A stretch of 64,000 nucleotides of DNA. Source: Spirochaetia bacterium (GTDB lineage Bacteria > Spirochaetota > Spirochaetia > UBA9216). The notes beneath the pieces were generated by a model. That model was not told the DNA's origin, did no database searches, and saw nothing but the letters and a program-made list of their open reading frames with translations. A program made the position numbers and the translations under genes. Below are positions 44,267 through 61,849 of the stretch, piece by piece. Where the stretch lies: positions 1,824,001 to 1,888,000 of the forward strand of contig OY776510.1 of NCBI GenBank assembly GCA_963675665.1, read 5' to 3'. How positions within the stretch are numbered: position 1 is the stretch's first letter; the number at the start of each line of letters is the position of its first letter.

Positions 44267-44644
44267 GTGGCGGTAAAAAAAGAAATTTACAAATGCAACC
44301 TCTGCGGTAATGTTGTAGAGGTTGTTCATGGTGCAGACGGGCAGCTGGTATGCTGCGGACAGCCGATGGAATGTCTTAAAGAGAAGACTGCCGATTCTGC
44401 TACTGAAAAACATGTTCCGGTAATAGAGAAGATAGACGGCGGTTACAGAGTCACTGTCGGAAGTACTATCCATCCAATGGTTGATGAACACTTTATTGAG
44501 TGGATTGAATTGAGTTATGACGGCAAAAGCGGTAAAAAATTCCTTAAACCGGGTGACGAACCTGTTGCGGAGTTTCTGTGCGGTCATCATGACGATGTAT
44601 CAGCCCGTGAATACTGTAATGTACACGGTTTGTGGAAAGCTTAA
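44267..44644 (+). CDS. dfx: Desulfoferrodoxin (superoxide reductase, 2Fe)
   Basis: [34 protein letters not shown]. Confidence 0.96.
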
Positions 44645-48151: not shown

Positions 48152-48240
48152 TAGTTCCTCCAAACGTTTATACTAACTTTAAGTATTTAATATAACACAG
48201 CGGCATTTTCAAAGTGTCACTTTTTATGTAAAATTTGATT

Positions 48241-48864
48241 ATGGAAAATTCAAGGCGCAAACTGGAATATATACGTGATTTGATTAAACCGGAACTTTCT
48301 GTTCTGGAAAGGATAGAGAATGAAAACCTGCAAAGGAACGATGTACAGCCGTCAATTGAGCCTGAGACCGGACGTTTCCTGGAATTGCTTGTAAGGCTGA
48401 CGGGGGCAAAACGGGTTCTTGAGATTGGAACAAGCAACGGCTGCTCGGCTTTATGGATTCTTAAAGCACTGTCGGTCACGGGCGGCCGGCTTGTAACGAT
48501 TGATTCGAAAGAAAGGCTTCACCTTGAAGCAGTCCGTAATTTCAGGGAAGCAGGTTTTTCAAATGTAAGGGCGATATTGGGCGATGCAGCAGAAGAACTT
48601 GATAAACTTGAGCCGGAATTCGACATTATCTTTCAGGATTGCGGTAAATATCTTTATCCTGAATTGTTTGAAAGAACAGTTGATCTTTTAAAGCCCGGAG
48701 GACTCTTGATAGCGGACGATACACTATTCAGTTTTGAACCGCGGGTCCGGCCCAACCTGGGAAAATTTACCGATCAATATAACGAACTTGCATTCGGTAG
48801 TAACAAACTTCTAACTTCAATAATTCCGATTGGACATGGATTAACGTTGAGTTTTAAATTATAA
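48241..48864 (+). CDS. O-methyltransferase (YrrM/caffeoyl-CoA OMT-like)
   Basis: VLEIGTSNGCS, FDIIFQD, LKPGGLLIAD. Confidence 0.88.
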   Translation: MENSRRKLEYIRDLIKPELSVLERIENENLQRNDVQPSIEPETGRFLELLVRLTGAKRVLEIGTSNGCSALWILKALSVTGGRLVTIDSKERLHLEAVRNFREAGFSNVRAILGDAAEELDKLEPEFDIIFQDCGKYLYPELFERTVDLLKPGGLLIADDTLFSFEPRVRPNLGKFTDQYNELAFGSNKLLTSIIPIGHGLTLSFKL

Positions 48865-48871
48865 TATCAGT

Positions 48872-49678
48872 ATGAGTGATTTAACGGAGAAAAAAGCGTT
48901 TATTTGCGATATGGACGGTGTTATCTATCATGGTAACAAATTGCTTCCGGGTGTAAAGGAATTTGTAAACTGGCTCAGAAAAGAAGACAAGAAATTTCTT
49001 TTTCTGACGAACGGAAGTCAGCGTTCACCTCTTGAGCTGCAGCAGAAGCTTTCCAGGCTTGGCGTTGTAGTTGAGAAAGAGCATTTCTACACAAGCGCTC
49101 TTGCTACGGCAGGGTTCCTTGCGCAGCAGCAGCCGGGCGGCTCTGCCTTTGTAATAGGCGAAGCCGGTCTTATAAATGCCCTCTATGATGCCGGAATGAC
49201 GATGAATGATGTAAATCCTGATTACGTAGTTGTCGGAGAGTCCAAAACATATAATATGGACATGCTTGAACATGCTGTTAATCTTGTTATAGGCGGGGCT
49301 AAACTGGTTGGGACCAATCCTGATCTTACCGGTCCTATTGAAAACGGAATAGCTCCGGCAACCGGGGCGCTGATGGCGCCGATAGAGCTTGCCACAGGCA
49401 ATAAGGCCTACTATATCGGCAAGCCCAATCCGCTGATGATGCGGCAGGCTCTCAAGCGTCTTGAAACCAAACGTGAAGATACGGTAATAGTCGGCGACAG
49501 GATGGATACCGATATAGTATCGGGAATCGAATCCGAAATAGAAACAGTTCTTGTTTTGAGCGGCGTTACTGATGAAACCGAGATGAATCGGTTTGCCTAC
49601 AGGCCCGGTTATATTTTCAGCGGTGTGGGTGATATCCCCAATGCAGGGGCCAAAGAACACCCTGTTGCGAATAAATAA
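48872..49678 (+). CDS. HAD-IIA hydrolase (NagD-like)
   Basis: DMDGV, LTN, TNPD, GKPNP, GDRMDTDI. Confidence 0.92.
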   Translation: MSDLTEKKAFICDMDGVIYHGNKLLPGVKEFVNWLRKEDKKFLFLTNGSQRSPLELQQKLSRLGVVVEKEHFYTSALATAGFLAQQQPGGSAFVIGEAGLINALYDAGMTMNDVNPDYVVVGESKTYNMDMLEHAVNLVIGGAKLVGTNPDLTGPIENGIAPATGALMAPIELATGNKAYYIGKPNPLMMRQALKRLETKREDTVIVGDRMDTDIVSGIESEIETVLVLSGVTDETEMNRFAYRPGYIFSGVGDIPNAGAKEHPVANK

Positions 49679-49695
49679 AAGGCAAGCGGGGCGCA

Positions 49696-50490
49696 ATGAT
49701 TCTCAATTATAAGGAATATGGCTCAGACCGCTTTCGGGCGGTCTTTTTTCTTCATGGTTTGCTCGGAAGTTCTGATAACTGGGGTTCAACCTGCAGGGCG
49801 CTTTCAGAATATGGTTTTCGCTGTATTGCTGTTGACCAGCGCAATCACGGCTCATCTCCGCACAGCCCGGAAATGAATTACCCGCTGATGGCCGAAGATC
49901 TTGTAAAACTTGCAGATGCGCTGAAGCTGGAACGGTTCAGCGTTGCGGGCCATTCAATGGGCGGCAAGACTGCAATGGAAGCGGCTCTTGGTTATCCGGA
50001 CAGGATTGATTCGGTTATTGTGGCCGATATTGCGCCGATTCAATACAAACCGGCATATATCGATTATATTGATTCATTAAAACAGATTGATTTAAGCGGA
50101 ATAAAACGGCGGTCAGACGCAGATTCACTTCTGGCGGAATATGTACCCGACAGGCACTTAAGGATGTTTTTTCTTACCAACCTGAGAAGGTCGGATGACG
50201 GACGGTTTAAATGGCGGATAAATATTGACGGGATAACCGGAAATTATGAGAATATCTGGCAGGCTGTTGACGGCGGCAGGGTTTATAACGGTCCTGTTTT
50301 GTTTATAAAGGGAGGCAATTCCGGTTTTATCCAGGATAAGAACAGGGACATAATCAGGCAGCTTTTCCCGTCGTATACTATTAAGGTGATCGACGGGGCC
50401 GGACACTGGATTCATTCCGAAAAGCCGGCAGAATTCAGAGAGGAAGTCAGGAGGTTTCTGGCTGACACTTTGCAGATTTCTGAATCATGA
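49696..50490 (+). CDS. Alpha/beta hydrolase (YbfF/ABHD11-like esterase)
   Basis: HGLLGS, DQRNHG, GHSMGG, GHWIH. Confidence 0.92.
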   Translation: MILNYKEYGSDRFRAVFFLHGLLGSSDNWGSTCRALSEYGFRCIAVDQRNHGSSPHSPEMNYPLMAEDLVKLADALKLERFSVAGHSMGGKTAMEAALGYPDRIDSVIVADIAPIQYKPAYIDYIDSLKQIDLSGIKRRSDADSLLAEYVPDRHLRMFFLTNLRRSDDGRFKWRINIDGITGNYENIWQAVDGGRVYNGPVLFIKGGNSGFIQDKNRDIIRQLFPSYTIKVIDGAGHWIHSEKPAEFREEVRRFLADTLQISES

Positions 50491-50538: not shown

Positions 50539-52158
50539 ATGAGCGAGTTCATTTATCAGGAAATCTTCGAACATGCAACACCTGAATGTGAATACAGGCT
50601 GCTTGCGAATAAGTTTGTAACAACGTTTACGGCTGCCGGGCGGACTATTCTGTCTGTTGAGCCGGAAGGGCTGAGTTTTCTTGCCGAACAGGCCGTAAGA
50701 GAGATTTCTTATCTGCTGCGGACTTCTCATCTTGAGGGTCTTCAAAAAATTATTGAAGATCCGGAGTCTTCGGAAAATGATGTTTATATTGCCGAAACCC
50801 TTCTTGAGAATGCAGTTATATCGGCTGAAATGGAGTATCCGGGATGCCAGGACACCGGGACGGCAATCGTGGTAGCCCACAAAGGCGAGAACGTTTATAC
50901 CGGGACCGATGATGCCGAAGCTCTCAGCCGGGGAATTTATCAGGCTTATCAGGGAAATAATCTCCGTTTTTCACAGACCGTTCCCCTTTCAATGTACGAA
51001 GAAGTCAACTCCGGAACAAATCTTCCGGCCCAGATTGATATTGCCGCTGTACCGGGCGGAAGCTATGAGTTTCTGTTTATTACCAAGGGCGGCGGTTCTG
51101 CAAACAAGACCTTTTTGTTTCAGGAGACAAAAGCCCTGCTCGAACCCGACAGGCTCAGGGTTTTTCTGGCGGAAAAGATTGCCTCAATCGGCACCTCAGC
51201 CTGTCCGCCGTATCATCTTGCAGTTGTGATAGGGGGAACATCCCCGGAAATGAACCTGAAGACTGTTAAACTTGCTTCAGCGAAATATTATGATAACCTG
51301 CCCGAAAACGGGAACCGGTACGGCCGCGCGTTTCGCGACAGGCATCTTGAAGCGGATATTCTTGAAATGACCCGCAGCCTGGGAATAGGGGCGCAGTTCG
51401 GTGGAAAGTATTTCTGCCATGATGTAAGGGTTATACGGTTGCCGAGGCACGGAGCCTCCTGTTCGGTTGGGATAGGAGTAAGCTGCAGCGCCGACCGTAA
51501 TATCAGGGCAAAGATTACAGCCGACGGTATCTTCCTCGAAAAGCTTGAGACCGACCCTTCGAGATTTCTTAAAACTTCAGCCGGCAGGAAGCCGGGAAAG
51601 AAAATCGGCGAAGCGGTCGGAATTGATCTGTCGGCAGGGATGGAAGAATTGCGCCGGACGTTAAGCCGGTATCCGGTCAAAACAAGGGTAATGCTCAGCG
51701 GAAAGATTATTGTAGCCCGCGATATTGCACACGCAAAGCTTTATGAACGGCTTAAAAAAGGGGAAGGGGTGCCTGAATATTTTAAGGAGCATATCATTTA
51801 CTACGCCGGTCCCGCGAAAACCCCGGAAGGCAGGGCTTCAGGTTCCCTGGGACCTACTACCGCCGGCCGTATGGATCCATATGTTCCGGAGTTTCAGAAA
51901 GAAGGCGCGTCCCTTGTTATGCTTGCAAAGGGCAACCGGTCGCAGGCGGTTGTTGATTCCTGCCGGAAATACGGCGGTTTTTACCTGGGTTCTGTCGGAG
52001 GCGCCGCGGCAATCCTGGGTCGTGATTGTGTGACCTCATCCGAAGTCGTTGAGTTTCCCGAGCTCGGAATGGAGGCGGTTTACATGATTACCGTGAGAGA
52101 CCTGCCTGCGTTTATTCTGATAGACGATAAGGGAAATGATTTTTTCCCGCTATTATAG
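50539..52158 (+). CDS. Fumarate hydratase class I (Fe-S, fused alpha/beta)
   Basis: [40 protein letters not shown]. Confidence 0.95.
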
Positions 52159-52169
52159 GTCCCTTTGAA

Positions 52170-52979
52170 TTAGAATCCCCGTAACTCAGTACTGCTTCTT
52201 ACCGGCAGGCCTTCTTTTGGTGTTCTTTTCAGAATCAGGTACTGAAGGTTGTATTTTTCACAGAACTCACGTTTTTCGGGTTTGTCACCGTCTTCGTTGA
52301 CTGCATAGATGTCCGGTTTCAGGATTTTTATTTCAGGTTCGGCATCCATCCATCCGCTGCCGGTTGAAATACAGGCGCCCTTTACGTACTTTATGGACTG
52401 AACAATGAAAAGACGTTCGTCTTCGCTGTAATGCGGATGTCCTTCTCCCTTTAGCATCTCAACATTCCTGTCGCTGCCTATTATTACATACAGCTCTCCG
52501 TATTCAGAGACTTCTTCAAAAAACCTGATGTGGCCGGTATGAAAATAATCATAACATCCGGTAACGACGATTTTTTTCCCGTCGCTGTCAGGCAGATGTT
52601 CAGCGTATTTATTCAATTTGAAATCCGAATGGCCGGCAGCGACAAGTGCAGGTCCGTTATCTCTGCAGTATGCTTTTTTTGAATCGTTCTGATCTTCCGG
52701 AAAAACAAGCCAGTAATCAGCAGCACCGGCTTCTTCCGGTAACCGATCCGGGTCGAACGCGGTATTTACCGTGATTACGGTATCAATGTATTTTATTGAT
52801 TCCGTAAAGTACAATCGTTCCTGCAGATTGAACCTGGGATATGCGCCGTATACGTTTTTATGCATTTCATCGGGCCACAGAACAAGATTTACAGAGCCGT
52901 ATTCAGCGGCAGTTCTAAGAAAAGCAATATGAGAAGTTCTGATATCATCGAAGCTGCCTGAAACAATAACCTTTTTCAC
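52170..52979 (-). CDS. Protein with two tandem cytidylyltransferase-like (HIGH-superfamily) domains
   Basis: Domain 1 VSGSFDDIRTSH (degenerate); domain 2 VTGCYDYFHTGH, ER, C-terminal SST. Confidence 0.82.
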   Translation of the reverse strand: MKKVIVSGSFDDIRTSHIAFLRTAAEYGSVNLVLWPDEMHKNVYGAYPRFNLQERLYFTESIKYIDTVITVNTAFDPDRLPEEAGAADYWLVFPEDQNDSKKAYCRDNGPALVAAGHSDFKLNKYAEHLPDSDGKKIVVTGCYDYFHTGHIRFFEEVSEYGELYVIIGSDRNVEMLKGEGHPHYSEDERLFIVQSIKYVKGACISTGSGWMDAEPEIKILKPDIYAVNEDGDKPEKREFCEKYNLQYLILKRTPKEGLPVRSSTELRGF

Positions 52980-53746
52980 AATCTGACCTTTATCCTTATT
53001 CCGCCCGGAACATCCTGTTCCGAAACAACATACAGGTATCCGCCGCCGCAGCCCGAATACATTGCACCGTCATACCGTTCCTGGTAATGCCTCATTACTT
53101 TTTTCAGATCTACTTTCAGTGTCTGGTGAAGAACGGTTCCCGGCAGGATTTTTTCCCAGCATTCCATGCAGGTGTTCATTGATGCACCGAGCGCTTTTGA
53201 GTCCATATTTATTATGGCGTCAAAGCAGTCCCTGCCTGTCTGTCCCAGCCGGCGGACATCTTCAGGTTCGAGGTTCCTGGTTTCAAGCGGATTATACCCT
53301 TCAGGCCGCTGTGCGACAGGAACCAGACTGATGTTTCTTTCAAGCCATTCAGCTGTTTCCTGTCCGGTGTTCGATTCGATATGAAAAGGAAAATAACCGC
53401 CTTCATGCTCAATGGAATAGTCAAGCCTGCTTATTCCCGGGTAGATGATTCCTACCATATCCTGTGAACCCGACGGCGCCGGAAGATCCTTGTTTTCTTC
53501 ATTGTATAATTCGCGTGTCAGTCGGCCGTAATCTTCATCAGGAATTTTTCCGTTCCAGATCCGCTGGGCAACTTTCCGTGAGCTGGTGGCCATCCCGCAT
53601 CTGTCCATCAGCCTGAATTGCGGTTGAATGCTTACTACGACCATTGATCCGAAAGAGTCGGGGTTTACGGCGGAAACAAACGGCTGATCGATCCAGCCGC
53701 CTGCAAACGCCATTCGGTAGGGAATCATGCCGATTGCATCAGTCAT
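52976..53746 (-). CDS. Short GHMP-superfamily kinase-like protein
   Basis: PYRMAFAGGWID, GMATS, GSQD, SGCGGG. Confidence 0.7.
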   Translation of the reverse strand: MTDAIGMIPYRMAFAGGWIDQPFVSAVNPDSFGSMVVVSIQPQFRLMDRCGMATSSRKVAQRIWNGKIPDEDYGRLTRELYNEENKDLPAPSGSQDMVGIIYPGISRLDYSIEHEGGYFPFHIESNTGQETAEWLERNISLVPVAQRPEGYNPLETRNLEPEDVRRLGQTGRDCFDAIINMDSKALGASMNTCMECWEKILPGTVLHQTLKVDLKKVMRHYQERYDGAMYSGCGGGYLYVVSEQDVPGGIRIKVRL

Positions 53747-53748
53747 TT

Positions 53749-54756
53749 TCAGCTGACGGTCCTTTTTCCGGCTTTACGGTCGCTGTACTGCTGTTTGATC
53801 CATCTGTATGTCTTTGCAATCCCTTCGGCCAGCGGGGTTGACGGCTCCCAGTTCAGGACGGATTTGATGAATGTATTATCCGAGTTTCTGCCTGCAACGC
53901 CTTTGGGTGCGTCCGGGTTATATGTTCTTTTCACTTTGAAATCGGCAACTTTTTCCACGGTGTCAACAAGCTCGTTTACCGAAACAAGCTCGGATGAGCC
54001 GAGGTTGATCGGTGTGGCTATGAGATCATCACAGTGGGTGATTATATCTATGCCCTTTGTACAGTCGTCGATATACATGTATGAACGGGTTTGAGATCCG
54101 TCGCCCCAGATTTCCATTTCACCGGTTCCGCTGTCCCGGGCTTCAATAACCTTGCGGCACATTGCTGCGGGAGCCTTTTCACGTCCGCCGTCCCAGGTTC
54201 CGTAGGGTCCGTAAACATTGTGGAATCTTGCAATAAAGGTTTTCATTCCCCTCTCTGCAGCATATTCCTCGCAGAACATCTCTGAAAGAAGTTTTTCCCA
54301 TCCGTATCCACGTTCAGCCATAGCCGGATAAGCATCGGATTCCTTAAGAGCTATAACATCAGGGTTTTTCTGCAAATCAGTGTTATAGGCACAGGCTGAT
54401 GATGAAAAGAAATATCTGCCGACTCCCGCATTGTATGCTGCTTCAATCATATTTGTGTTTATAAGAATTGAACGCAGGCATTCCACACGGTTTTTTTCGA
54501 TAAATCCCATTCCGCCCATATCTGCAGCCAGGTTGTAAACCTCTTTTGCATTTTCAACCGCACGGACGCAGTTTTGGTACTCGCTTACATCAAGGCAGAG
54601 GCTTTCGGCTCCTTCTACAACCTGGTACCACTGGTAGAGGGGTTTCTTGTCAACCGCCCTCAGATTGGTAAAGCCTTTTTCCGTGAAATATCTTACAAGC
54701 GCACCGGCAATAAACCCGCCCGCGCCGGTAACAACAATCAAGTCATCTTTCTTCAT
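53749..54756 (-). CDS. GDP-mannose 3,5-epimerase-like NAD-dependent epimerase
   Basis: GAGGFIA, NLAADMGGMGFI, SSAC, YGWEK, RFHNVYGP.GTW.GGREKAPAA.CRK, WGDG.QTRS; these match motifs of plant GME. Confidence 0.85.
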   Translation of the reverse strand: MKKDDLIVVTGAGGFIAGALVRYFTEKGFTNLRAVDKKPLYQWYQVVEGAESLCLDVSEYQNCVRAVENAKEVYNLAADMGGMGFIEKNRVECLRSILINTNMIEAAYNAGVGRYFFSSSACAYNTDLQKNPDVIALKESDAYPAMAERGYGWEKLLSEMFCEEYAAERGMKTFIARFHNVYGPYGTWDGGREKAPAAMCRKVIEARDSGTGEMEIWGDGSQTRSYMYIDDCTKGIDIITHCDDLIATPINLGSSELVSVNELVDTVEKVADFKVKRTYNPDAPKGVAGRNSDNTFIKSVLNWEPSTPLAEGIAKTYRWIKQQYSDRKAGKRTVS

Positions 54757-54836
54757 AATTGTCCTCCATAATAAATACATCATAGAGCCGGGATTGCTTG
54801 ATAACAATGCTCAAAAAGCGTAGTATTTATAATGAA

Positions 54837-55970
54837 ATGCGCAATATAGCTCTCTGTATGGGAATTAATGATCACTATGAACACGGAATAGCCCGCGGTG
54901 TTGTTCGCTTCGCAAAAGAGAGAGGCTGGAAACTGTCGGGTTACGGATGGATGTTCGGCAGTCTTGACGATATAACCGAATGGAAAGGAGACGGAATTAT
55001 TACCAGAATCGAGTTTGCCGGTGATGCCGATCTTTTCGGCAGTCTTGATATTCCGGTTATTGATGTTGCTGGTGCATACAGCCGAAGATCTTTTCACCAG
55101 GTCAGCAATGATGACTTTATGACGGGGAAGAAAGCCGGCATTCACCTGTCGGAACGCGGATTCATTCATTATGCTTACTGCGGTGTCGAAAATGTCGGCT
55201 GGTCTCAAAAGCGCAAGGAGGGGTTCGTCGCCGGTATCGGAAAGAGCTCTTTCCCGGTTTTTGAACGCAGCCTTGAGTGGTGGGAGCAGTTTGACCGGTC
55301 AGATTCGCTTAACGATTGGCTTAAATCGCTTCCCATCTCGGGCGCTGTGTTTGCATGCAACGATACCGCCGGTGTGAAAGTCACATCGGTTTGCCGAAGC
55401 CTCGGTATATCTGTTCCGGAAGAACTGGCCATTTTGGGTGTGGATAATGAAGATATCCTCTGTGAGCTGGCGGCACCGTCCTTGTCCAGCGTACAGCTTG
55501 ACTGCGAACAAATCGGCTACAGGGCAGCCGGGCTGCTTGATACGTTGCTTCACAGGAAAAATCCTGTTCGGTCTTATACTTCCGAAATTCTTGTCATGCC
55601 GAAAGGAATCATGGAGCGTGAATCAACAAGGATTTTTGTCAGCCGTGATCAGCTTGTTCAAAGCGCCGTCAACCTGATAAGAACCGATGTAAGTTCCGGA
55701 ATCACAGTATCTGAACTGGCGGACAGAATGGCTGTCTCCCGCAGAACACTGGAAACACGTTTCAGGAAGATTCTGAAGACAAGTGTTCATGATGAGATAG
55801 TTTCGGCACGACTGTCTTTTGCCGAAAAGCTTCTAATAAGTACCGACGCCACTGTTGAATCAGTCGCATCCGATTCGGGTTATAATTCCATGCAGCGGTT
55901 TCATGCAGGGTTCAGGTCAAGGCACGGAATGACGCCGGGAGAATACAGGAAAAAGTATCGGCGGGGATAA
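54837..55970 (+). CDS. XylR-type regulator (LacI-like sensor plus AraC HTH)
   Basis: FACND, VPEELAILGVDN, LSSV, SRRTLE.RF, C-terminal GMTPGEYR; start could be 54798-54837. Confidence 0.88.
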   Translation: MRNIALCMGINDHYEHGIARGVVRFAKERGWKLSGYGWMFGSLDDITEWKGDGIITRIEFAGDADLFGSLDIPVIDVAGAYSRRSFHQVSNDDFMTGKKAGIHLSERGFIHYAYCGVENVGWSQKRKEGFVAGIGKSSFPVFERSLEWWEQFDRSDSLNDWLKSLPISGAVFACNDTAGVKVTSVCRSLGISVPEELAILGVDNEDILCELAAPSLSSVQLDCEQIGYRAAGLLDTLLHRKNPVRSYTSEILVMPKGIMERESTRIFVSRDQLVQSAVNLIRTDVSSGITVSELADRMAVSRRTLETRFRKILKTSVHDEIVSARLSFAEKLLISTDATVESVASDSGYNSMQRFHAGFRSRHGMTPGEYRKKYRRG

Positions 55971-55993
55971 TATACGGATTCATAAAGAATATA

Positions 55994-56467
55994 TCATAGA
56001 GAATCTGAGCCGGGAGACCCTTCAGTTCCCCACTCATATGTACGTTTGAGATAGTTCATTACTACAGAGGAGTCGGCTCTTAGTACTCCTCTTATATTAT
56101 ATATTTTTTTAAATATTAAATCTTCCATCTCCTGAAGCGATCTTACGTTGAACTCAACATCCAGATCATGGGCGCCGGTAGTGACTGCTATATACCAAAT
56201 TTCTTTAATCTGCTTGATTTCATTAATAACGCTATCTGCATAATACGGATCCAGCTGCACTTTTATTAATCCGGATATGGGAAATCCCAGCTTGATAGGG
56301 TCGCACACGGCTACAATCTGAAAAACCTTGTTGTCTTTCAGGATCTGAACCCTTTTCCGGATTGTTGTTTCCGATACTCCGATTTTTTCAGCTATTGTTT
56401 TAAACGGCAGTCTGCCGTCCTGCTGCAGTAATTTGATTATCTCGGTATCAATTTTATCAATTTCCAA
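55994..56467 (-). CDS. Lrp/AsnC family regulator
   Basis: D.ID..II..LQ.DGR, IAEKIGVSE.T, TTGAHD; TTG start after SD CAGGAG. Confidence 0.93.
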   Translation of the reverse strand: MEIDKIDTEIIKLLQQDGRLPFKTIAEKIGVSETTIRKRVQILKDNKVFQIVAVCDPIKLGFPISGLIKVQLDPYYADSVINEIKQIKEIWYIAVTTGAHDLDVEFNVRSLQEMEDLIFKKIYNIRGVLRADSSVVMNYLKRTYEWGTEGSPGSDSL

Positions 56468-56576
56468 AACGCAGCTCCTGTTTTTGTCTCATTAACAATA
56501 TACTTGCATAACCTTCCATGTTCAAGATTCAGGGCTGTTTTAAGAAGTTAATTTGATATGGATTAAATATATAAGT

Positions 56577-56647
56577 CGTAAAACAAATAAATATATCAAA
56601 ATAAAACGTAAAACAAACTAAAAAGGCAAAAAAAAGCGAAATACAAA
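56577..56647. promoter_or_regulatory. Three direct repeats at 30-bp spacing (putative Lrp/FFRP sites)
   Basis: CGTAAAACAAA at 56577 and 56607, CGAAATACAAA at 56637. Confidence 0.65.
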
Positions 56648-56656
56648 CATTTTTTC

Positions 56657-56685
56657 TTGACATAAGAAAATTTTGACCTTACCAT
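56657..56685 (+). promoter_or_regulatory. Sigma70 promoter of the NhaC/dehydrogenase operon
   Basis: TTGACA-17 bp-TACCAT. Confidence 0.7.
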
Positions 56686-56721
56686 AAATGAAATTCATAT
56701 ATTTGGAGGGTAGAAATTAGT

Positions 56722-58092
56722 ATGGATCATTATGGAATTCTTTCCCTGGTTCCGGCGATAGTAATAATACTGTTCGCACTGAAAACACGGAAAACATTTG
56801 AGGCTCTGCTTCTTGGATCGGTTATAGCGTATATAATCATCCATGGGTTCAGGTTTTTCATGCCGTGGCTGAACAAGCTGCTGGAGGTTTGCTCCGACGG
56901 TGATACAGCCTGGTATGTAATAGCTTTCGGCCTGTTCGGAGCTTTTCTTGCGCTTGCGGAAGAATCGAGAGGTTCATTTGCATTCTCAAAACTGTTGCTG
57001 AAATGGTGCAGGAACCAGAGACGAAGTCTCATCTCAACTTTTATAATCGGCGTTGTACTGTTTGTTGATGATTACCTTGATTCAATTACCTCAGGGGCCG
57101 TCATGAAACCCATCTGCGACAAGAACAAGCTTCCCCGTGAATCAATGGCTTATGTTATCGATTCAACAGCAGCCCCCATGTGCGTAATTGTACCGATCTC
57201 AACCTGGGTTATTTTTTATTCGGGTGTATTCGGCAACGACGAATCTTTTGCGCACCTCGGTTCCGGGATGGAAATATATCTTAAGGCCTTGCCGTTTATC
57301 TTTTATGCATGGATAGCCCTGGTAATTGTTTTTCTTTTCTCGATGCAGATTATTCCGCCGATCGGTCCAATGAAAAAGGCCTACCAGAGGGTTAAGGATA
57401 CCGGTAAAACATTTTCGGATCGCAGCATTGAACTGAATGCTGAAACTGAAGAGGTTAATCTTGATGAAATCAACACAGTTAAGGGTGTAATAAACTTCCT
57501 GGCCCCGCTGGCTCTTCTTGTTGTTGTTACCTTACTTACTGAAGATATACTTGTTGCTGTTATAGCGGCAGTAGCATTACAGTTTGTTTTATACGTACCT
57601 ACTAAAACCATAGGGTTTGATCACTTTTTTAAATCTGTAGTGAAGGGTTTTCAGAACATGCTGCCGATGATCTTCATTCTTGTCGGTGCATTTATGGTGC
57701 AGGCAACTTCAAAGGAAATAGGTCTGGCGAATTTTGTAGTTGAGAAACTTGAACCCATAATGGGTGCAAACATATTCCCTGCGATAACGTTTCTGGCCGT
57801 TTCCGTTGTCTCCTTCATTACAGGCAGCAACTGGGGTGTTCCGGCCCTTATGGTACCGATAATATTTCCTCTTGCCATCGCTGTCGGCGCAAATCCTTAC
57901 CTTACGGCAGCGGCTATAGTCGGCGGAGGAACTTTCAGCAGTCATATATGTTTCTATTCAGATGCGACTGTTCTTACTTCCATAGCATCAGGCTGCGATA
58001 ACATGGATCACGCGTTGACGCAGGCTCCGTACGGTTTTATAGGTGCGGCAGTTACCTTCGTATTAACCCTGATTCTGGGATTTATTTTGTAA
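56722..58092 (+). CDS. NhaC-family (Na+/H+ antiporter-like, probable amino acid/amine) transporter
   Basis: FVDDY, AYVIDSTAAP, PISTW, TGSNWG, SDATVL..S, DHALTQ. Confidence 0.85.
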   Translation: MDHYGILSLVPAIVIILFALKTRKTFEALLLGSVIAYIIIHGFRFFMPWLNKLLEVCSDGDTAWYVIAFGLFGAFLALAEESRGSFAFSKLLLKWCRNQRRSLISTFIIGVVLFVDDYLDSITSGAVMKPICDKNKLPRESMAYVIDSTAAPMCVIVPISTWVIFYSGVFGNDESFAHLGSGMEIYLKALPFIFYAWIALVIVFLFSMQIIPPIGPMKKAYQRVKDTGKTFSDRSIELNAETEEVNLDEINTVKGVINFLAPLALLVVVTLLTEDILVAVIAAVALQFVLYVPTKTIGFDHFFKSVVKGFQNMLPMIFILVGAFMVQATSKEIGLANFVVEKLEPIMGANIFPAITFLAVSVVSFITGSNWGVPALMVPIIFPLAIAVGANPYLTAAAIVGGGTFSSHICFYSDATVLTSIASGCDNMDHALTQAPYGFIGAAVTFVLTLILGFIL

Positions 58093-58143
58093 TCATTTAC
58101 GGCTGCCGGGAGGGTATTCCCGGCGGCTTACAAGAGGTTTTTT

Positions 58144-59346
58144 ATGAAGATATTAATTTTAGGCGGCGGCGGGTTAATGGGTTCCGGTACTGTGAGGGAT
58201 CTTGTTTCCGGCCAGTCCTCCGGTTCCGGTATTAAAGAGGTAATAGCAGCTGATTATGACATTGCTGCGGTTAGGAAACTTGCAACTGAGCTTGGTGATC
58301 CGAGAATTACACCGGTCGGGGTTGACGTCAGGGACGCAGCCGGCGTAAAGGACCTGCTCGAAAAGGCGGATCTGTGCATAAATGCTGTTCCCACTTTTTT
58401 GGATCTGCAGCTTGATATTTTTCATTACTGTCTTGAAACGCACACGCCCTATGTTGATTACGGCGGAATGGGAATATACACTGAAAAACAGAAAGCTGAA
58501 CATGATAAATGGGTTGCTGCCGGCGTTCCGGCAATTCTCGGGCTGGGAGCTGATCCGGGAATGTCCAATGTTATCTGCCGTTCTGTGGCCGATGAACTTG
58601 ACACGATCGACAGTATTAACCTTTTTTGGGCGGCGAAGCTTGACGGACCGGATAACCCGGTGCTGGTGCCGGCATACAGTACTTTAACTCTGCTTGCAGA
58701 GTTTGCCCGCCCGAGCAAACAGTTTTACGACGGAAAACTGGTGGAGATGCCGCCGCAAAGCGGTAAAGTTACAAAAATTCTGCCGGAGCCTTTCGGCAAA
58801 ACGGAATTTATGCATTCGATGCATTCCGAACCGTTAACCGTACCTTTTTCAAGGGGTATTAAAGAAAAGGGAATCAGGGAAATGACATGGCGGCTGCATC
58901 TGCCCGAATATGAAAATTCATTATGGAAATCCATGGTTTCAGCCGGGTTCGGAGATTTTGATGATCCTGTTGATTTTCATGGTAATAAAATTATGCCCGG
59001 AGAGTTTCTGGAATTATTGATAAAAAGAAATATTGAGCGGAACAGCTCGCTGATTCCGGAACAAACCTATTATGAGATTCATTTCGCAACGGGCATCGGA
59101 ACAATAAACGGTATGCCGGCTGAGGTTACAACAACAGTAATGGTGAATCCGGATCCCTTATATGAAAAGTATAATGATGCGGGAACATCAATGAACTGTT
59201 CAATAGGAGCACAGATGCTTGGTCTTGATCTTGTCCGGCCCGGAGTCTGGGGGCCTGAAGAGTGCCTTGATGTCGGCAGATATTTTGAAGAATTGAGAAA
59301 AAGAAAATTTGAAATCAAAACTGAAATCACAGTTATTAAAAAATAA
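58144..59346 (+). CDS. Saccharopine dehydrogenase-like oxidoreductase (paralog 1)
   Basis: GGGGLMG Rossmann, YVDY, GLGADPG, HSEP. Confidence 0.85.
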   Translation: MKILILGGGGLMGSGTVRDLVSGQSSGSGIKEVIAADYDIAAVRKLATELGDPRITPVGVDVRDAAGVKDLLEKADLCINAVPTFLDLQLDIFHYCLETHTPYVDYGGMGIYTEKQKAEHDKWVAAGVPAILGLGADPGMSNVICRSVADELDTIDSINLFWAAKLDGPDNPVLVPAYSTLTLLAEFARPSKQFYDGKLVEMPPQSGKVTKILPEPFGKTEFMHSMHSEPLTVPFSRGIKEKGIREMTWRLHLPEYENSLWKSMVSAGFGDFDDPVDFHGNKIMPGEFLELLIKRNIERNSSLIPEQTYYEIHFATGIGTINGMPAEVTTTVMVNPDPLYEKYNDAGTSMNCSIGAQMLGLDLVRPGVWGPEECLDVGRYFEELRKRKFEIKTEITVIKK

Positions 59347-59367
59347 AACGCTTTTAAGGAGATAAAA

Positions 59368-60627
59368 TTGAAACGAGTATTGGTCATCGGTGCAGGTGCA
59401 CAGGGCGGACCCTGTGCTTCGATACTTGCCAGGGGTTCCGAAATGGAGGAAGTTATTCTTGCCGATATTGATATGGATTTATGCCGAAAGGTTAAAAATA
59501 AAATCGGAAGCGGCAAGGTTTCTGCCGTGAAACTAAACGCGGGCAACGTAGAAGAGATTGAAAGAGCTGCCCGGGGGTGTGATGTTGTCATTAACCTGAC
59601 CCTTCCTGTATTCAGCGAAAAAATAATGCAGGCAGCTTTGAATGCGGGGGCCCATTATGTGGATACCTCGTTCGGCGAACCCGAACTGATGGATATCTGC
59701 GCAAGGGACAACATATTGTCCCAGATTATAGAAGGACGAGACCTTCTGCTTGATAAGGAATTTAAAAATGCCGGCTTGACAGCACTTGTCGGCTGCGGCG
59801 GAACCCCGGGTTTTCTTAATGTGGGCGTAAGATACCTGTGCGATAAACTCGATGAAGTTGAAGAAATACGAATGAAATTCGGCGAAGGTCCTGTAGGGAA
59901 TCAGCCTGAAGAACTTGTCGCCGGAGCATGGAATCCCGGATGGAACCCTTTCAGGGCCCTTTGGGGTTATGCGGTTGAACCCGCAATATTCAGAAACGGC
60001 AAATACGAAACATCTCCGATATTCGGCGAACCTGAAGTGTACAAGTTTCCCGATCCTCTTGGAGAGATAGCAATATGTCACCACCAGCACCAGGAGCAGG
60101 TTACGCTGCCGTTTTTTATCGGAAAGGGAATAAAGTACTGTGAATTTAAATACCCGGTTGATAATCAGGCTGCAACCTTCGTTAAAATGGGATTTGGTAA
60201 ACCAGATACAATAACGGTGAATGGTCAGGAAGTCTCACCAAGGGACGTTCTTATGAAAATGATGGTGCCGCCTGGTAATGTTTTTCTGGAAGAAAATGAG
60301 AAAACCGCGGCGGAACCTCTTGAGGCCACACAGATATGGGTAGTTGAAGTTAAGGGCCTTGAAGGCGGAAAACCCGTTACCTATACCTTGTCGGAGCCCT
60401 ATACCTTCATCCTGACAACCGAGGATAAAATAAAGGTTTACGACCTCTTCGGCTCCACTGATGTCGGCGTGGCCCTGCCTGCCGTTATCGGTGCGAAGAT
60501 GTGTTCATCGGGACGTACAGAATCAGGGACAATATCCTCCGAATGCCTCGATCCGAATATTTTTCTGAAACTTCTGGCGGAAACCGGCGTCCCCCTTTCC
60601 GTGGAAGATAGAGTCGTAAGGAGTTGA
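59368..60627 (+). CDS. Saccharopine dehydrogenase-like oxidoreductase (paralog 2)
   Basis: GAGAQG, HYVDT, GCGGTPG, HQEQVTLP. Confidence 0.85.
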   Translation: MKRVLVIGAGAQGGPCASILARGSEMEEVILADIDMDLCRKVKNKIGSGKVSAVKLNAGNVEEIERAARGCDVVINLTLPVFSEKIMQAALNAGAHYVDTSFGEPELMDICARDNILSQIIEGRDLLLDKEFKNAGLTALVGCGGTPGFLNVGVRYLCDKLDEVEEIRMKFGEGPVGNQPEELVAGAWNPGWNPFRALWGYAVEPAIFRNGKYETSPIFGEPEVYKFPDPLGEIAICHHQHQEQVTLPFFIGKGIKYCEFKYPVDNQAATFVKMGFGKPDTITVNGQEVSPRDVLMKMMVPPGNVFLEENEKTAAEPLEATQIWVVEVKGLEGGKPVTYTLSEPYTFILTTEDKIKVYDLFGSTDVGVALPAVIGAKMCSSGRTESGTISSECLDPNIFLKLLAETGVPLSVEDRVVRS

Positions 60628-60631
60628 CTGT

Positions 60632-61849
60632 ATGTTTAAATACCTGATAGTCGGCGCCGGGGCACAGGGCGCCGCTTGCGCGTCAATTCTGGCCAATGAT
60701 GAGGAAACGGAAAAAGTTGTTCTGGCCGATATAAATATTGATCAGGCCCGAAGGGTCGTTGAACACATCGGATCAGCAAAATTTTTTGCAGAACGGGTAG
60801 ATGCTTCTGACGTAGAAGATATTGTAAGGCTTGCGAACGGGGTTGATATAATCCTTAATTTTGCTCTTCTGAAATTTAATCCGCAGATAATGCAGGCGGC
60901 AATGAAAGCCGGGGTGCATTATATTGATACGGCTTTTGATAACCCTATCTGGAATGAGCTTGAAACTGAATTCCCGCTGAAAGTCGGGCTGCAGTTTGAA
61001 GAGAAAAATATTACCGGAATTGTCGGTTGTGGAGGAGCCCCGGGGCTTATTAATGTGTTCGCCAGGCTTATCTGCGATACTATGGATACAGTCGAATCGA
61101 TAAAACTGAAAGTCGGCCACAGGGACCTGGCTAAAAAGGACAGGATAACAACCTGGATCCCATCATGGTGCCCGGAAATAGCATTAACGGATTATGCCGA
61201 TCCTCCGACAGTTTTTACAAACGGGAAATATACACAGGTTCCGGCATTTGCCGGGCAGGAGGAATATGAATTCCCCGGGCCGGTGGGAAAGAACCTGATA
61301 GCGCACCATCACCATGAAGAGCCGGTGACCCTTCCCAGGTTTATCGGAAAGGGTGTAAAGCATGTTGAGTTCAAATACGCGGTGGATCTTAACGCGGCGT
61401 CTTTTGTAAAGATGGGGTTTGCCGGTTACGACAAGATAAACGTAAAGGGCGTAGAAGTAGCGCCTATCGATGTATTAATGAAACTGGTAAAGCAGCCTTC
61501 GGACAATTTTTTCACGGAAAATGAAGAAACAGCGGCAAAAGATTCAACAATTCTGCACCCCTACCTGGTTGAAGTGGAAGGCGCCGTGAACGGTAAAATA
61601 TATAAACACAAGCTGTGGTATCCGTGTTCATTGACATCAAGCGGCAGTGAAAAACTGGAAGTCTTCAGGAAATTCGGAACAACAAATATTGCTGTCGCGT
61701 TGCCTGCTGTCGCCGGCGCAAAAATGATCCTCAAAGGAAAAGCCGATTTCGGAGTTATAGCTCCGGAATGTCTTGATCCGAAAGCATTCCTTAACGAAAT
61801 GGCTGAAACAGGGTGGGCCGTAAAGTATGAGGAAGAAATCGGTCGATAG
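60632..61849 (+). CDS. Saccharopine/carboxynorspermidine dehydrogenase-like oxidoreductase (paralog 3)
   Basis: GAGAQG, HYIDTA, GCGGAPG, HEEPVTLP. Confidence 0.85.
   Translation: MFKYLIVGAGAQGAACASILANDEETEKVVLADINIDQARRVVEHIGSAKFFAERVDASDVEDIVRLANGVDIILNFALLKFNPQIMQAAMKAGVHYIDTAFDNPIWNELETEFPLKVGLQFEEKNITGIVGCGGAPGLINVFARLICDTMDTVESIKLKVGHRDLAKKDRITTWIPSWCPEIALTDYADPPTVFTNGKYTQVPAFAGQEEYEFPGPVGKNLIAHHHHEEPVTLPRFIGKGVKHVEFKYAVDLNAASFVKMGFAGYDKINVKGVEVAPIDVLMKLVKQPSDNFFTENEETAAKDSTILHPYLVEVEGAVNGKIYKHKLWYPCSLTSSGSEKLEVFRKFGTTNIAVALPAVAGAKMILKGKADFGVIAPECLDPKAFLNEMAETGWAVKYEEEIGR

Follow-up and report, generated by a model that had tools for sequence, protein, structure and literature searches.

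We lean toward reading a three-gene operon in a spirochaete genome as the core of a nucleotide-sugar catabolic route, Leloir-like and of the pyrophosphorylase type, that would lead from L-galactose to mannose phosphate. The operon lies in the window analyzed here, a 64,000-nucleotide stretch of a Spirochaetia bacterium (assembly GCA_963675665.1, contig OY776510.1, positions 1,824,001 to 1,888,000), and all positions without a contig or locus label are those of the window. On the reverse strand it encodes an epimerase (53749..54756; 335 residues), a kinase-fold middle protein (52976..53746; 256 residues), and a nucleotidyltransferase (52170..52979; 269 residues), and it is divergent from a XylR-type regulator gene. 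We base our reading on the folds and families to which these proteins belong, on their catalytic residues, and on the gene order conserved in other genomes and the catabolic neighborhoods found there.

The initial annotation of this locus described a tight three-gene operon divergent from a XylR-type regulator. The map of open reading frames (ORFs) agrees: 2 nucleotides (nt) separate the epimerase stop from the start of the middle gene, which in turn overlaps the nucleotidyltransferase gene by 4 nt. The open frame of the epimerase reaches TTG 54807 (a 352-residue ORF); however, its start is probably ATG 54756, because homologues begin aligning at residue 18.

Epimerase

The epimerase is about 50% identical over its whole length to the Arabidopsis GME structure 2c59 (E = 3e-81), and it matches the Pfam families Epimerase (8e-34) and GDP_Man_Dehyd. 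The catalytic motifs of plant GME that the initial annotation claimed for it (SSAC, YGWEK, and REKAP) are all present in the translation. According to the available part of PMC8787198, the residues that define guanosine diphosphate (GDP)-mannose 3,5-epimerases (GM35E) and set them apart from GalE and GDP-fucose synthase are S143/Y174/K178, the acid-base pair C145/K217, R306, R243, and N203. Judged against that list, the 352-residue ORF has the Ser-Tyr-Lys triad at S137, Y168, and K172 (aligned to S143, Y174, and K178 of Arabidopsis GME), the Cys/Lys pair and the Cys-acidifying Arg at C139, K211, and R307 (C145, K217, and R306), the diphosphate-binding Arg at R241 (R243), and the "orange-wall" Asn at N197 (N203). 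Note that the chain numbering of the Protein Data Bank (PDB) entry in the 2c59 alignment is the native numbering plus 2. The N-terminal glycine motif reads GAGGFIAG.

We found the same eight marker residues to be invariant in 65 of 65 operon-linked epimerase homologues of at least 320 residues, which are 66 to 91% identical to the window epimerase. By all eight markers, the window epimerase is predicted to be a bona fide GM35E-type enzyme. Within the portions of the literature available, the equilibrium of GM35E is unfavorable toward the L-galactose side, the enzyme additionally yields GDP-L-gulose and GDP-D-altrose (PMC8787198), and the bacterial roles in print are biosynthetic, in lipopolysaccharide (LPS) and antibiotics (PMC6678494, PMC8787198).

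Compact kinase-fold protein

Searched as a single sequence, the middle protein had no match in Pfam (E 0.01), NCBIfam, or the PDB (phmmer). It has 7668 homologues at E ≤ 0.001, which span Spirochaetes, Chloroflexi, Planctomycetota, and others; the best 120 are 63 to 99% identical, and the source names shown are all "hypothetical protein." An exhaustive search of cluster representatives at 50% identity returned 650 related clusters, 91 of them at E ≤ 1e-30.

We aligned 59 middle-protein sequences, including distant members (alignment A2), and used this alignment for both structure prediction and profile search. AlphaFold2 gave a model with a predicted local distance difference test (pLDDT) score of 96.4, as against 61.8 with a shallow 15-sequence alignment. 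The top structural match of the model is the heptokinase WcbL (Foldseek E = 1.3e-8, probability 1.0; VIA Z 22.4, 2.8 Å over 236 of 256 residues), and further matches are the FKP fucokinase with β-L-fucose 1-phosphate (VIA Z 20.6, 2.7 Å over 226), an archaeal galactokinase (VIA Z 20.2, 2.9 Å over 223), and mevalonate kinases (VIA Z ~19, ~2.8 to 3.1 Å over 212 to 220). The best PDB match of the A2 profile is the FKP L-fucokinase (E = 4.7e-17), with heptose kinase next (6.4e-11).

In the profile alignments to PDB sequences, the GHMP motifs I (P-x-R-x-x-L-A-G-G-x-x-D), II (the phosphate loop, G-S-G-L-G-S/T-S), and III (G-A-G-G-G-G) are in register. The middle protein carries the GHMP motif sequences PYRMAFAGGWIDQP and SGCGGGY. 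Motif II is altered to R-C-G-M-A-T-S-S-R, aligned to GSGLGTSS of 3k85; within the family, G51 is invariant, and conservation reaches 90% or more at S55 and R57. A G-x-Q-D motif is also present, with SGSQDM of the middle protein aligned to GGWQDQ of the FKP fucokinase. The Pfam GHMP models (PF00288 and PF08544) find no match in the middle protein, and PF08544 is found in only 3 of 23 distant relatives; the family falls outside the current models. Profile and predicted fold put the middle protein firmly among the GHMP kinases, as a compact anomeric sugar kinase of the fucokinase/heptokinase branch, about 100 residues shorter, and we propose that it is a β-L-galactose (L-fucose-type) 1-kinase. 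The initial description of the gene as GHMP-kinase-like is thus borne out by the family profile and the fold model, but not by single-sequence searches of Pfam, NCBIfam, and the PDB.

Many relatives of the middle protein are longer, with the kinase domain at the C terminus. We scanned 23 longer or divergent relatives; in 13 of them, the polypeptide also contains one or two CTP_transf_like domains, and 2 of those 13 carry an additional domain at the N terminus (L-rhamnose mutarotase in one and PNP_UDP_1 in the other). Kinase and HIGH-fold transferase thus recur together as a two-step module, comparable to HldE or FKP, and judging from its fusion partners, the kinase family is a versatile sugar-activation module for several substrate classes. 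The fused distant relatives P0171, P0201, P0202, and P0246 are 29 to 38% identical to the mini-kinase.

Nucleotidyltransferase

The nucleotidyltransferase matches PF01467 (CTP_transf_like) in two stretches (4.5e-15; 56.5 bits against a cutoff of 21), and NCBIfam assigns it the heptose-1-phosphate adenylyltransferase domain (HldE domain II). A family profile of 32 sequences (A3) matches the two-domain ethanolamine-phosphate cytidylyltransferase 3elb (2.7e-23), the glycerol-3-phosphate cytidylyltransferase TagD (4.6e-11), and choline-phosphate cytidylyltransferases.

Across 50 family members, HxGH is confined to domain 2, where the consensus is T-G-C-Y-D-W-F-H-S-G-H, and a C-terminal R-x-S-T-x-L-R-G-F is kept family-wide. 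Domain 2 of the window protein (residues ~135 to 269) has TGCYDYFHTGH and a C-terminal RSSTELRGF, so that the HxGH and R-x-x-x-S-T motifs of PF01467 are both present. Domain 1 (GSFDDIRTSH in the window) has no HxGH in the family consensus, and it is probably noncatalytic because the histidines have been lost. The tandem nucleotidyltransferase domains of the initial annotation are therefore two domains in fold, but HxGH occurs only in domain 2, and domain 1 is degenerate throughout the family. Its motifs mark the protein as a HIGH-type (cytidylyltransferase-like) two-domain enzyme, with domain 2 predicted to be catalytic, and we propose that it is a sugar-1-phosphate nucleotidylyltransferase. 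A complex prediction for the nucleotidyltransferase and the kinase, run without controls, scored 0.00, which counts neither toward binding nor against it.

Conservation of the trio

A scan of one genome per species yielded at least 599 pattern matches, of which at least 567 were confirmed as relatives of the middle protein; we used the best 80 loci for all counts out of 80. By record title, these are from Chloroflexota (37), Planctomycetota (17), Acidobacteriota (13), Verrucomicrobiota (5), spirochaetes (3), Armatimonadota (2), Victivallales (1), Syntrophothermus (1), and an unclassified bacterium (1), and they represent about eight phyla. The presence and position of the trio genes were taken from tblastn, the ORF maps lacking a kinase-cluster ORF in 20 of the 80 loci. 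The epimerase gene lies on the same strand and no more than 3 kb upstream of the kinase gene in 72 loci, and the nucleotidyltransferase gene no more than 3 kb downstream in 62. The same gene order thus recurs in other phyla, in 62 to 72 of the 80 loci, far more often than chance would allow. Furthermore, the downstream position of the nucleotidyltransferase in 62 loci, together with the kinase/CTP_transf_like fusions in 13 of 23 relatives, indicates that the kinase and the nucleotidyltransferase are functionally coupled.

Closer to the host, we found an orthologous kinase in 6 of 41 genomes of the same class and the epimerase (E ≤ 1e-60) in exactly the same 6, always adjacent; a seventh genome has merely a 32%-identical, 390-residue kinase relative. 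The distribution of the trio is patchy (two of five congeners), as expected for an accessory trait. A variant arrangement occurs in four planctomycete loci of the Thermoguttaceae (L034, L037, L051, and L062), which have the kinase-nucleotidyltransferase pair after a DUF480 gene and without an adjacent epimerase. All four have GH43, and L034 and L051 also have a cytidylate-kinase-like gene.

Gene neighborhoods in other genomes

Gene calling in the 80 loci used a codon-usage score for which the trio served as the training set, and the called genes were then clustered. We annotated representatives of 32 of the 34 recurrent clusters, as well as 253 nonrecurrent ORFs of at least 110 residues that lie no more than 5 kb from the trio (of 312 ORFs, 285 remained at one per cluster, and 253 after those below 110 residues were dropped). 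Besides the trio, the most frequent enzyme neighbor is a homologue of the GDP-mannose pyrophosphorylase ManC (mannose-1-phosphate guanylyltransferase), which lies within 6 kb of the kinase in 22 of 80 loci, usually as the fourth operon gene. Within the same distance are LacI repressors (27 loci), adenosine triphosphate (ATP)-binding cassette (ABC) sugar-transport components (19), glycoside hydrolase family 29 (GH29) α-L-fucosidases (13, usually just 5' of the epimerase), FucU/RbsD mutarotase-pyranases (12), and AraC regulators (6). Aldo-keto reductases and GH43 enzymes occur at four loci each; FucI, FGGY kinase, zinc-dependent alcohol dehydrogenase (ZnADH), GH65, and PfkB at three each; and class II aldolase at two.

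The nonrecurrent neighbors include GH28, GH31, GH3, GH2 (two loci), GH42, and GH36-type melibiase (two loci), along with an apiosidase-like protein, a BNR sialidase-like protein, a sulfatase, major facilitator superfamily (MFS) carriers, and additional binding proteins. The association does not hold at every locus: 27 of the 80 show none of the listed neighbor themes. The neighborhood context is nevertheless one of sugar uptake and breakdown.

These neighborhoods also bear on whether the operon is biosynthetic. The initial annotation saw no glycosyltransferase, flippase, or polymerase gene nearby, and the domains are indeed absent from the 16 neighboring ORFs between 43.4 and 63.5 kb of the window. 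Our survey of orthologous clusters extends this: they adjoin glycoside hydrolases, mutarotases, importers, LacI or AraC regulators, and ManC, not polysaccharide-synthesis genes. The initial annotation had named a predominance of orthologs in polysaccharide biosynthesis loci as grounds for refuting its reading, and the survey shows no such predominance. Glycosyltransferase domains occur in 2 of the 80 loci (L035 and L066), several kilobases away each time, and no glycosyltransferase, flippase, polymerase, or export gene is recurrent across the 80. On the basis of this content, we rejected a polysaccharide-biosynthesis reading of the operon. The same content makes it very improbable that the epimerase works in de novo synthesis, supplying GDP-L-galactose or GDP-L-gulose to a polysaccharide, lipid, or secondary metabolite while kinase and nucleotidyltransferase handle some unrelated precursor, even though biosynthesis is the sole role in print for bacterial GM35E in the available parts of PMC6678494 and PMC8787198. 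The recurrent neighbors of the trio are hydrolases, mutarotases, importers, and repressors, and the 16 ORFs around the operon in the window offer no genes for assembly or export.

Two further features of individual loci were observed. Pyruvate formate-lyase (PFL)-like glycyl-radical enzymes adjoin the trio at L003 (3013-5394), L007 (6349-7341), and L028 (56-829), and these may be of the propanediol-dehydratase type of anaerobic fucose or rhamnose fermentation. At the Anaerolineae locus L011 (10689-11674), ManC is followed by a NUDIX hydrolase, a small cupin, and FucI; the NUDIX enzyme could be an alternative means of releasing hexose 1-phosphate from the GDP-sugar.

ManC and FucU in the host genome

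The trio is single-copy in the genome of the window. The sole ManC homologue of this genome (C1:1769968-1771062) is 53% identical to the operon-linked type and divergent from a FucU gene (1769387-1769818); this ManC-FucU pair is about 105 kb from the trio. The best NCBIfam model for FucU is L-fucose mutarotase (135.5 bits; cutoff 141). In another genome of the same class (G024), the epimerase, kinase, nucleotidyltransferase, ManC, and FucU genes follow one another on one strand, beside a divergent LacI gene and a CUT2-type ABC importer, and G027 has a run of epimerase, kinase, nucleotidyltransferase, and ManC. Because G024 and G027 keep ManC (and G024 also FucU) in a run with the trio, we conclude that the five genes belong together and are merely split in the genome of the window. 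A separate L-fucose isomerase (FucI) with its own LacI regulator is encoded elsewhere in this genome, as is a pair of FGGY kinase and class II aldolase. Directly 3' of the sole ManC is a gene for a 667-residue protein with DUF4954 and DUF6819 (L082 11133-13136; G000:C1:1771133-1773136), which has no NCBIfam match.

Proposed route and alternatives

The recurring ManC and FucU genes, which lie outside the window, complete the following proposed route. FucU, encoded elsewhere in the genome, would supply the β-pyranose of free L-galactose, and the 256-residue mini-GHMP kinase would phosphorylate it at C1 to β-L-galactose 1-phosphate. From this and a nucleoside triphosphate, expected to be guanosine triphosphate (GTP), the two-domain HIGH-fold nucleotidyltransferase would make GDP-L-galactose, which the GM35E-type epimerase would convert into GDP-D-mannose, the side favored by the equilibrium. 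ManC, running in reverse, would turn GDP-mannose and pyrophosphate into mannose 1-phosphate and GTP and so regenerate the nucleotide; phosphomannomutase, phosphomannose isomerase, and glycolysis would then take over. In response to the sugar, the divergent XylR-type protein would induce the operon. From the proteins and their genomic contexts we thus infer which substrates and which nucleotide are used, which way the flux runs, and how the operon is regulated.

The initial annotation likened the trio to galK, galT, and galE. The order of kinase, nucleotidyltransferase, and epimerase stands, but the counterpart of galT does not: no HIT-family domain, as in GalT, was found among the operon proteins, the recurrent neighbors, or the 253 other neighbors scanned. 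Because there is no HIT-type GalT, the operon route would not be the classical Leloir pathway; the match is with its pyrophosphorylase (Isselbacher) variant.

Only 6-hydroxy sugars can pass from hexose 1-phosphate to hexose 6-phosphate, and 6-deoxy sugars cannot. As the hexose 6-phosphate needs a 6-hydroxyl group, L-galactose, not L-fucose, would give a productive catabolic end. L-Galactose is also favored because the co-inherited epimerase and the frequent ManC only make sense with GDP-mannose as product, and because this genome and several of the loci already own an L-fucose isomerase route. L-Fucose as the primary catabolic substrate was rejected on these grounds, the inability of a 6-deoxy sugar to reach hexose 6-phosphate and the presence of FucI elsewhere in the genome, although the kinase could still accept it. 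GH29 and FucU would be of use for L-fucose as well as for its 6-hydroxy analogue; some fucosidases release L-galactose. Because the GM35E equilibrium disfavors GDP-L-galactose, flux would be pulled toward mannose, and because FKP has been used to make GDP-L-galactose, fucokinase-type enzymes can take L-galactose (both from the available part of PMC8787198).

A number of observations weigh against this route, and two alternatives draw on some of them. Of the 80 loci, only 26 carry a fucose-themed gene (GH29, FucU, or FucI) no farther than 6 kb from the kinase, and of the 46 loci that extend 4 kb or more to either side, 19 do. The kinase lacks an adjacent nucleotidyltransferase in 18 loci and an adjacent epimerase in 8, although several of these misses are contig ends. 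The host genome has neither GH29 nor GH95, so it probably scavenges the free sugar, and no transporter gene is adjacent to the operon. In addition, ManC rather than the nucleotidyltransferase could make the GDP-sugar, which would leave the latter without an explained role.

Other such points concern the kinase. FKP fucokinase is the top sequence match of the kinase profile, the nearest characterized kinase relative works on L-fucose, and L-fucose and L-galactose are inseparable as substrates by sequence. Two distant kinase relatives, P0201 and P0202, are fused to glycosyltransferase domains (GT2 and DXD type), and the wider family therefore also serves anabolic purposes. In keeping with this, the kinase and nucleotidyltransferase might activate scavenged L-fucose, L-galactose, or both to GDP-sugars that the cell builds into its own glycoconjugates, the role that FKP has in Bacteroides, with the epimerase linking the pools of GDP-L-galactose and GDP-mannose. 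The GH29, FucU, and FucI neighbors are L-fucose-themed, and the bacterial GM35E roles in print are biosynthetic (LPS and antibiotics, in the available part of PMC6678494), as salvage would have it. We nonetheless consider salvage unlikely. Only 2 of the 80 loci have a glycosyltransferase within 5 kb, and LacI, AraC, or XylR regulators and importers are typical of catabolic operons. Salvage would not require a ManC in the operon (22 of 80 loci), and GDP-L-fucose as a product would leave the strictly co-inherited epimerase pointless.

The remaining points concern the nucleotide. Solved relatives of the nucleotidyltransferase (ECT, TagD, and CCT) use cytidine triphosphate (CTP), or ATP in the case of HldE domain II, by NCBIfam; to our knowledge, there is no GTP-using member of its clade or fold, whereas the epimerase is GDP-type by homology. 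A different chemistry, which we hold to be somewhat less probable still than salvage, would have the nucleotidyltransferase make a CDP- or ADP-activated L-sugar, or use L-gulose, D-altrose, or another rare hexose, with the specificity of the epimerase shifted accordingly. The invariance of all eight GM35E markers, including the diphosphate-binding Arg, speaks against such a shift, as does the rank of the ManC homologue as the most frequent enzyme neighbor after the trio (22 of 80). It would fit, on the other hand, with a nucleotidyltransferase profile that among solved structures matches cytidylyltransferases only (NCBIfam giving a heptose-1-phosphate adenylyltransferase domain) and with operon epimerases that form a tight group, at 66 to 91% mutual identity versus about 50% to plant GME. 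GM35E is also described as forming GDP-L-gulose and GDP-D-altrose in the available part of PMC8787198. The route from L-galactose to mannose phosphate is the reading that we carry forward.

Regulator and flanking genes

The regulator gene (54807..55970, forward strand; ORF from 54798) encodes 388 to 390 residues, and coding conservation with the closest relative, L002, indicates that its ATG is probably at 54807. The protein matches Peripla_BP_3 (1.7e-29, 103.5 bits) and HTH_18 (2.7e-19, 69.7 bits) in the Pfam search; PBP1_XylR reached 24 bits, under its cutoff of 27. By domain architecture (a periplasmic-binding-protein sugar-binding domain and an AraC helix-turn-helix), we predict it to be a XylR-type regulator. 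The divergent XylR-type gene of the initial annotation recurs in three related genomes, where it is likewise divergent from the trio (L002, 74% identity; G004, 70%; G009, 54%), and this retained arrangement supports the protein as local regulator of the trio. LacI or AraC proteins replace it at other loci.

The control region between the epimerase and regulator genes (54757..54806) is 50 base pairs (bp) long. Aligned with L002, it shows conserved blocks that are partly regulator coding sequence. A promoter and terminator scan of 52000-56100 found promoter-like hexamers on both strands, 3 versus 6.3 expected from shuffled sequence, and did not define an operator.

The 16 flanking ORFs (43.4 to 63.5 kb) include a fumarase, hydrolases, a methyltransferase, an AsnC regulator, an NhaC-type carrier, and three saccharopine-dehydrogenase paralogues. 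Genes for a NagD-type HAD phosphatase and an O-methyltransferase are found near the operon both in the window (48235-50490) and in L002 (10378-11794); a role of the former as a sugar-phosphate phosphatase is possible. On the other side, an AsnC/Lrp regulator gene (55994-56467, reverse strand) is divergent from a gene for an NhaC-type Na+/H+ antiporter-family carrier (56722-58092). Three successive saccharopine-dehydrogenase-like paralogues follow the carrier (58144-59346, 59368-60627, and 60632-61849), an unusual triple set. The region 55994-61849 could be an amino-acid or a polyamine/opine cluster. A desulfoferrodoxin (superoxide reductase) gene at 44267-44644 fits an anaerobic lifestyle of the host.

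Comparison with known systems

The closest overall parallel is the Isselbacher form of the Leloir pathway (GalM, GalK, uridine diphosphate (UDP)-sugar pyrophosphorylase, and GalE). It has the same logic of mutarotase, GHMP anomeric kinase, nucleotidylyltransferase, short-chain dehydrogenase/reductase (SDR) epimerase, and release of hexose 1-phosphate. However, the operon route would work on an L-hexose with GDP and a 3,5-double epimerization, whereas the Leloir pathway works on a D-hexose with UDP and a 4-epimerization. The operon also differs in having a two-domain nucleotidyltransferase of the HIGH fold and a kinase that falls about 100 residues short of GalK, and release would be by ManC in reverse.

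Among characterized proteins, the closest relative of the 256-residue kinase is the kinase domain of FKP, the L-fucokinase/L-fucose-1-phosphate guanylyltransferase of Bacteroides fragilis (PDB 5yys, 9iip, and 9iit). FKP carries out the same two first steps on a β-L-galacto-configured sugar. It is a fused polypeptide of 949 residues with the kinase at 587-941 (~360 residues), in contrast to the stand-alone 256-residue kinase and separate cytidylyltransferase-like nucleotidyltransferase of the operon, and its pyrophosphorylase domain is of the NTP_transferase type. FKP also feeds glycan synthesis without a partner epimerase, which the operon has. The heptose activation systems HldE and HddA-HddC likewise combine an anomeric sugar kinase, of GHMP or PfkB type, with a nucleotidyltransferase (HIGH-fold); HldE, whose kinase is PfkB-type, has the two in one polypeptide, and so do many relatives of the 256-residue protein. 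Unlike the operon, these systems are biosynthetic (LPS or capsule), act on heptose phosphates, and have no catabolic context.

The plant Smirnoff-Wheeler pathway (GMP, GME, the GDP-L-galactose phosphorylase VTC2, and VTC4) shares with the operon route mannose 1-phosphate, GDP-mannose, GDP-L-galactose, L-galactose 1-phosphate, and L-galactose, as well as an orthologous epimerase (~50%). The operon route would run the opposite way, with a kinase and a nucleotidyltransferase and no ascorbate. Where the operon has these two, the plant pathway uses a HIT-family phosphorylase and a phosphatase.

Bacterial L-galactose catabolism is known in another form. Bacteroides vulgatus reportedly has an oxidative route via L-galactose dehydrogenase. 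In Luteolibacter sp. LG18, catabolism is also oxidative, from L-galactose dehydrogenase to L-galactonate, D-tagaturonate, and 2-keto-3-deoxygluconate (KDG), as described in the available part of PMC12632266. The LG18 cluster has the same presumed substrate as the operon and also an RbsD-type pyranase gene, but no nucleotide sugars ("GDP" occurs 0 times) and no enzymes homologous to those of the operon appear in that part of the text. The initial annotation knew of no description of a route through kinase, nucleotidyltransferase, and GM35E, and full-text literature searches, whose reach did not extend to subscription journals, found none.

Implications

The folds in this system are ordinary and their combination is new, and the proposal rests on two uncharacterized enzyme families. 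From this window we add a spirochaete version with a XylR-type regulator and the split of FucU-ManC from the trio. We also add that kinase and epimerase co-occur exactly among 41 relatives, and we link the kinase family to the FKP fucokinase at the level of sequence. With somewhat less than even confidence, we go further and suggest an undescribed but widespread route of central metabolism, present in at least eight phyla, that reverses the front half of the plant vitamin C pathway. It would use a mini β-L-galactose 1-kinase and the first GTP-using HIGH-fold sugar-1-phosphate guanylyltransferase, one with a pseudo-enzyme domain, and would put GM35E to catabolic use.

If true, this would be a third kind of L-galactose metabolism beside the bacterial oxidative route and plant biosynthesis, and a rare case of non-Leloir catabolism through nucleotide sugars. 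It would provide a function for a family of several thousand sequences without annotation in the libraries searched, as well as for the two-domain nucleotidyltransferase family, and would shift the presumed role of bacterial GM35E from biosynthetic to catabolic. Kinase, nucleotidyltransferase, and epimerase together would also be a compact enzymatic route between L-galactose and GDP-L-galactose or GDP-mannose, of a kind sought for L-sugar and glycoside synthesis (available part of PMC8787198). Finally, it would explain how degraders in soil, peat, sediment, and marine habitats, among them Anaerolineae, Acidobacteriota, Planctomycetota, Verrucomicrobiota, and spirochaetes, use the L-galactose of plant pectin and xyloglucan and of red-algal galactans.

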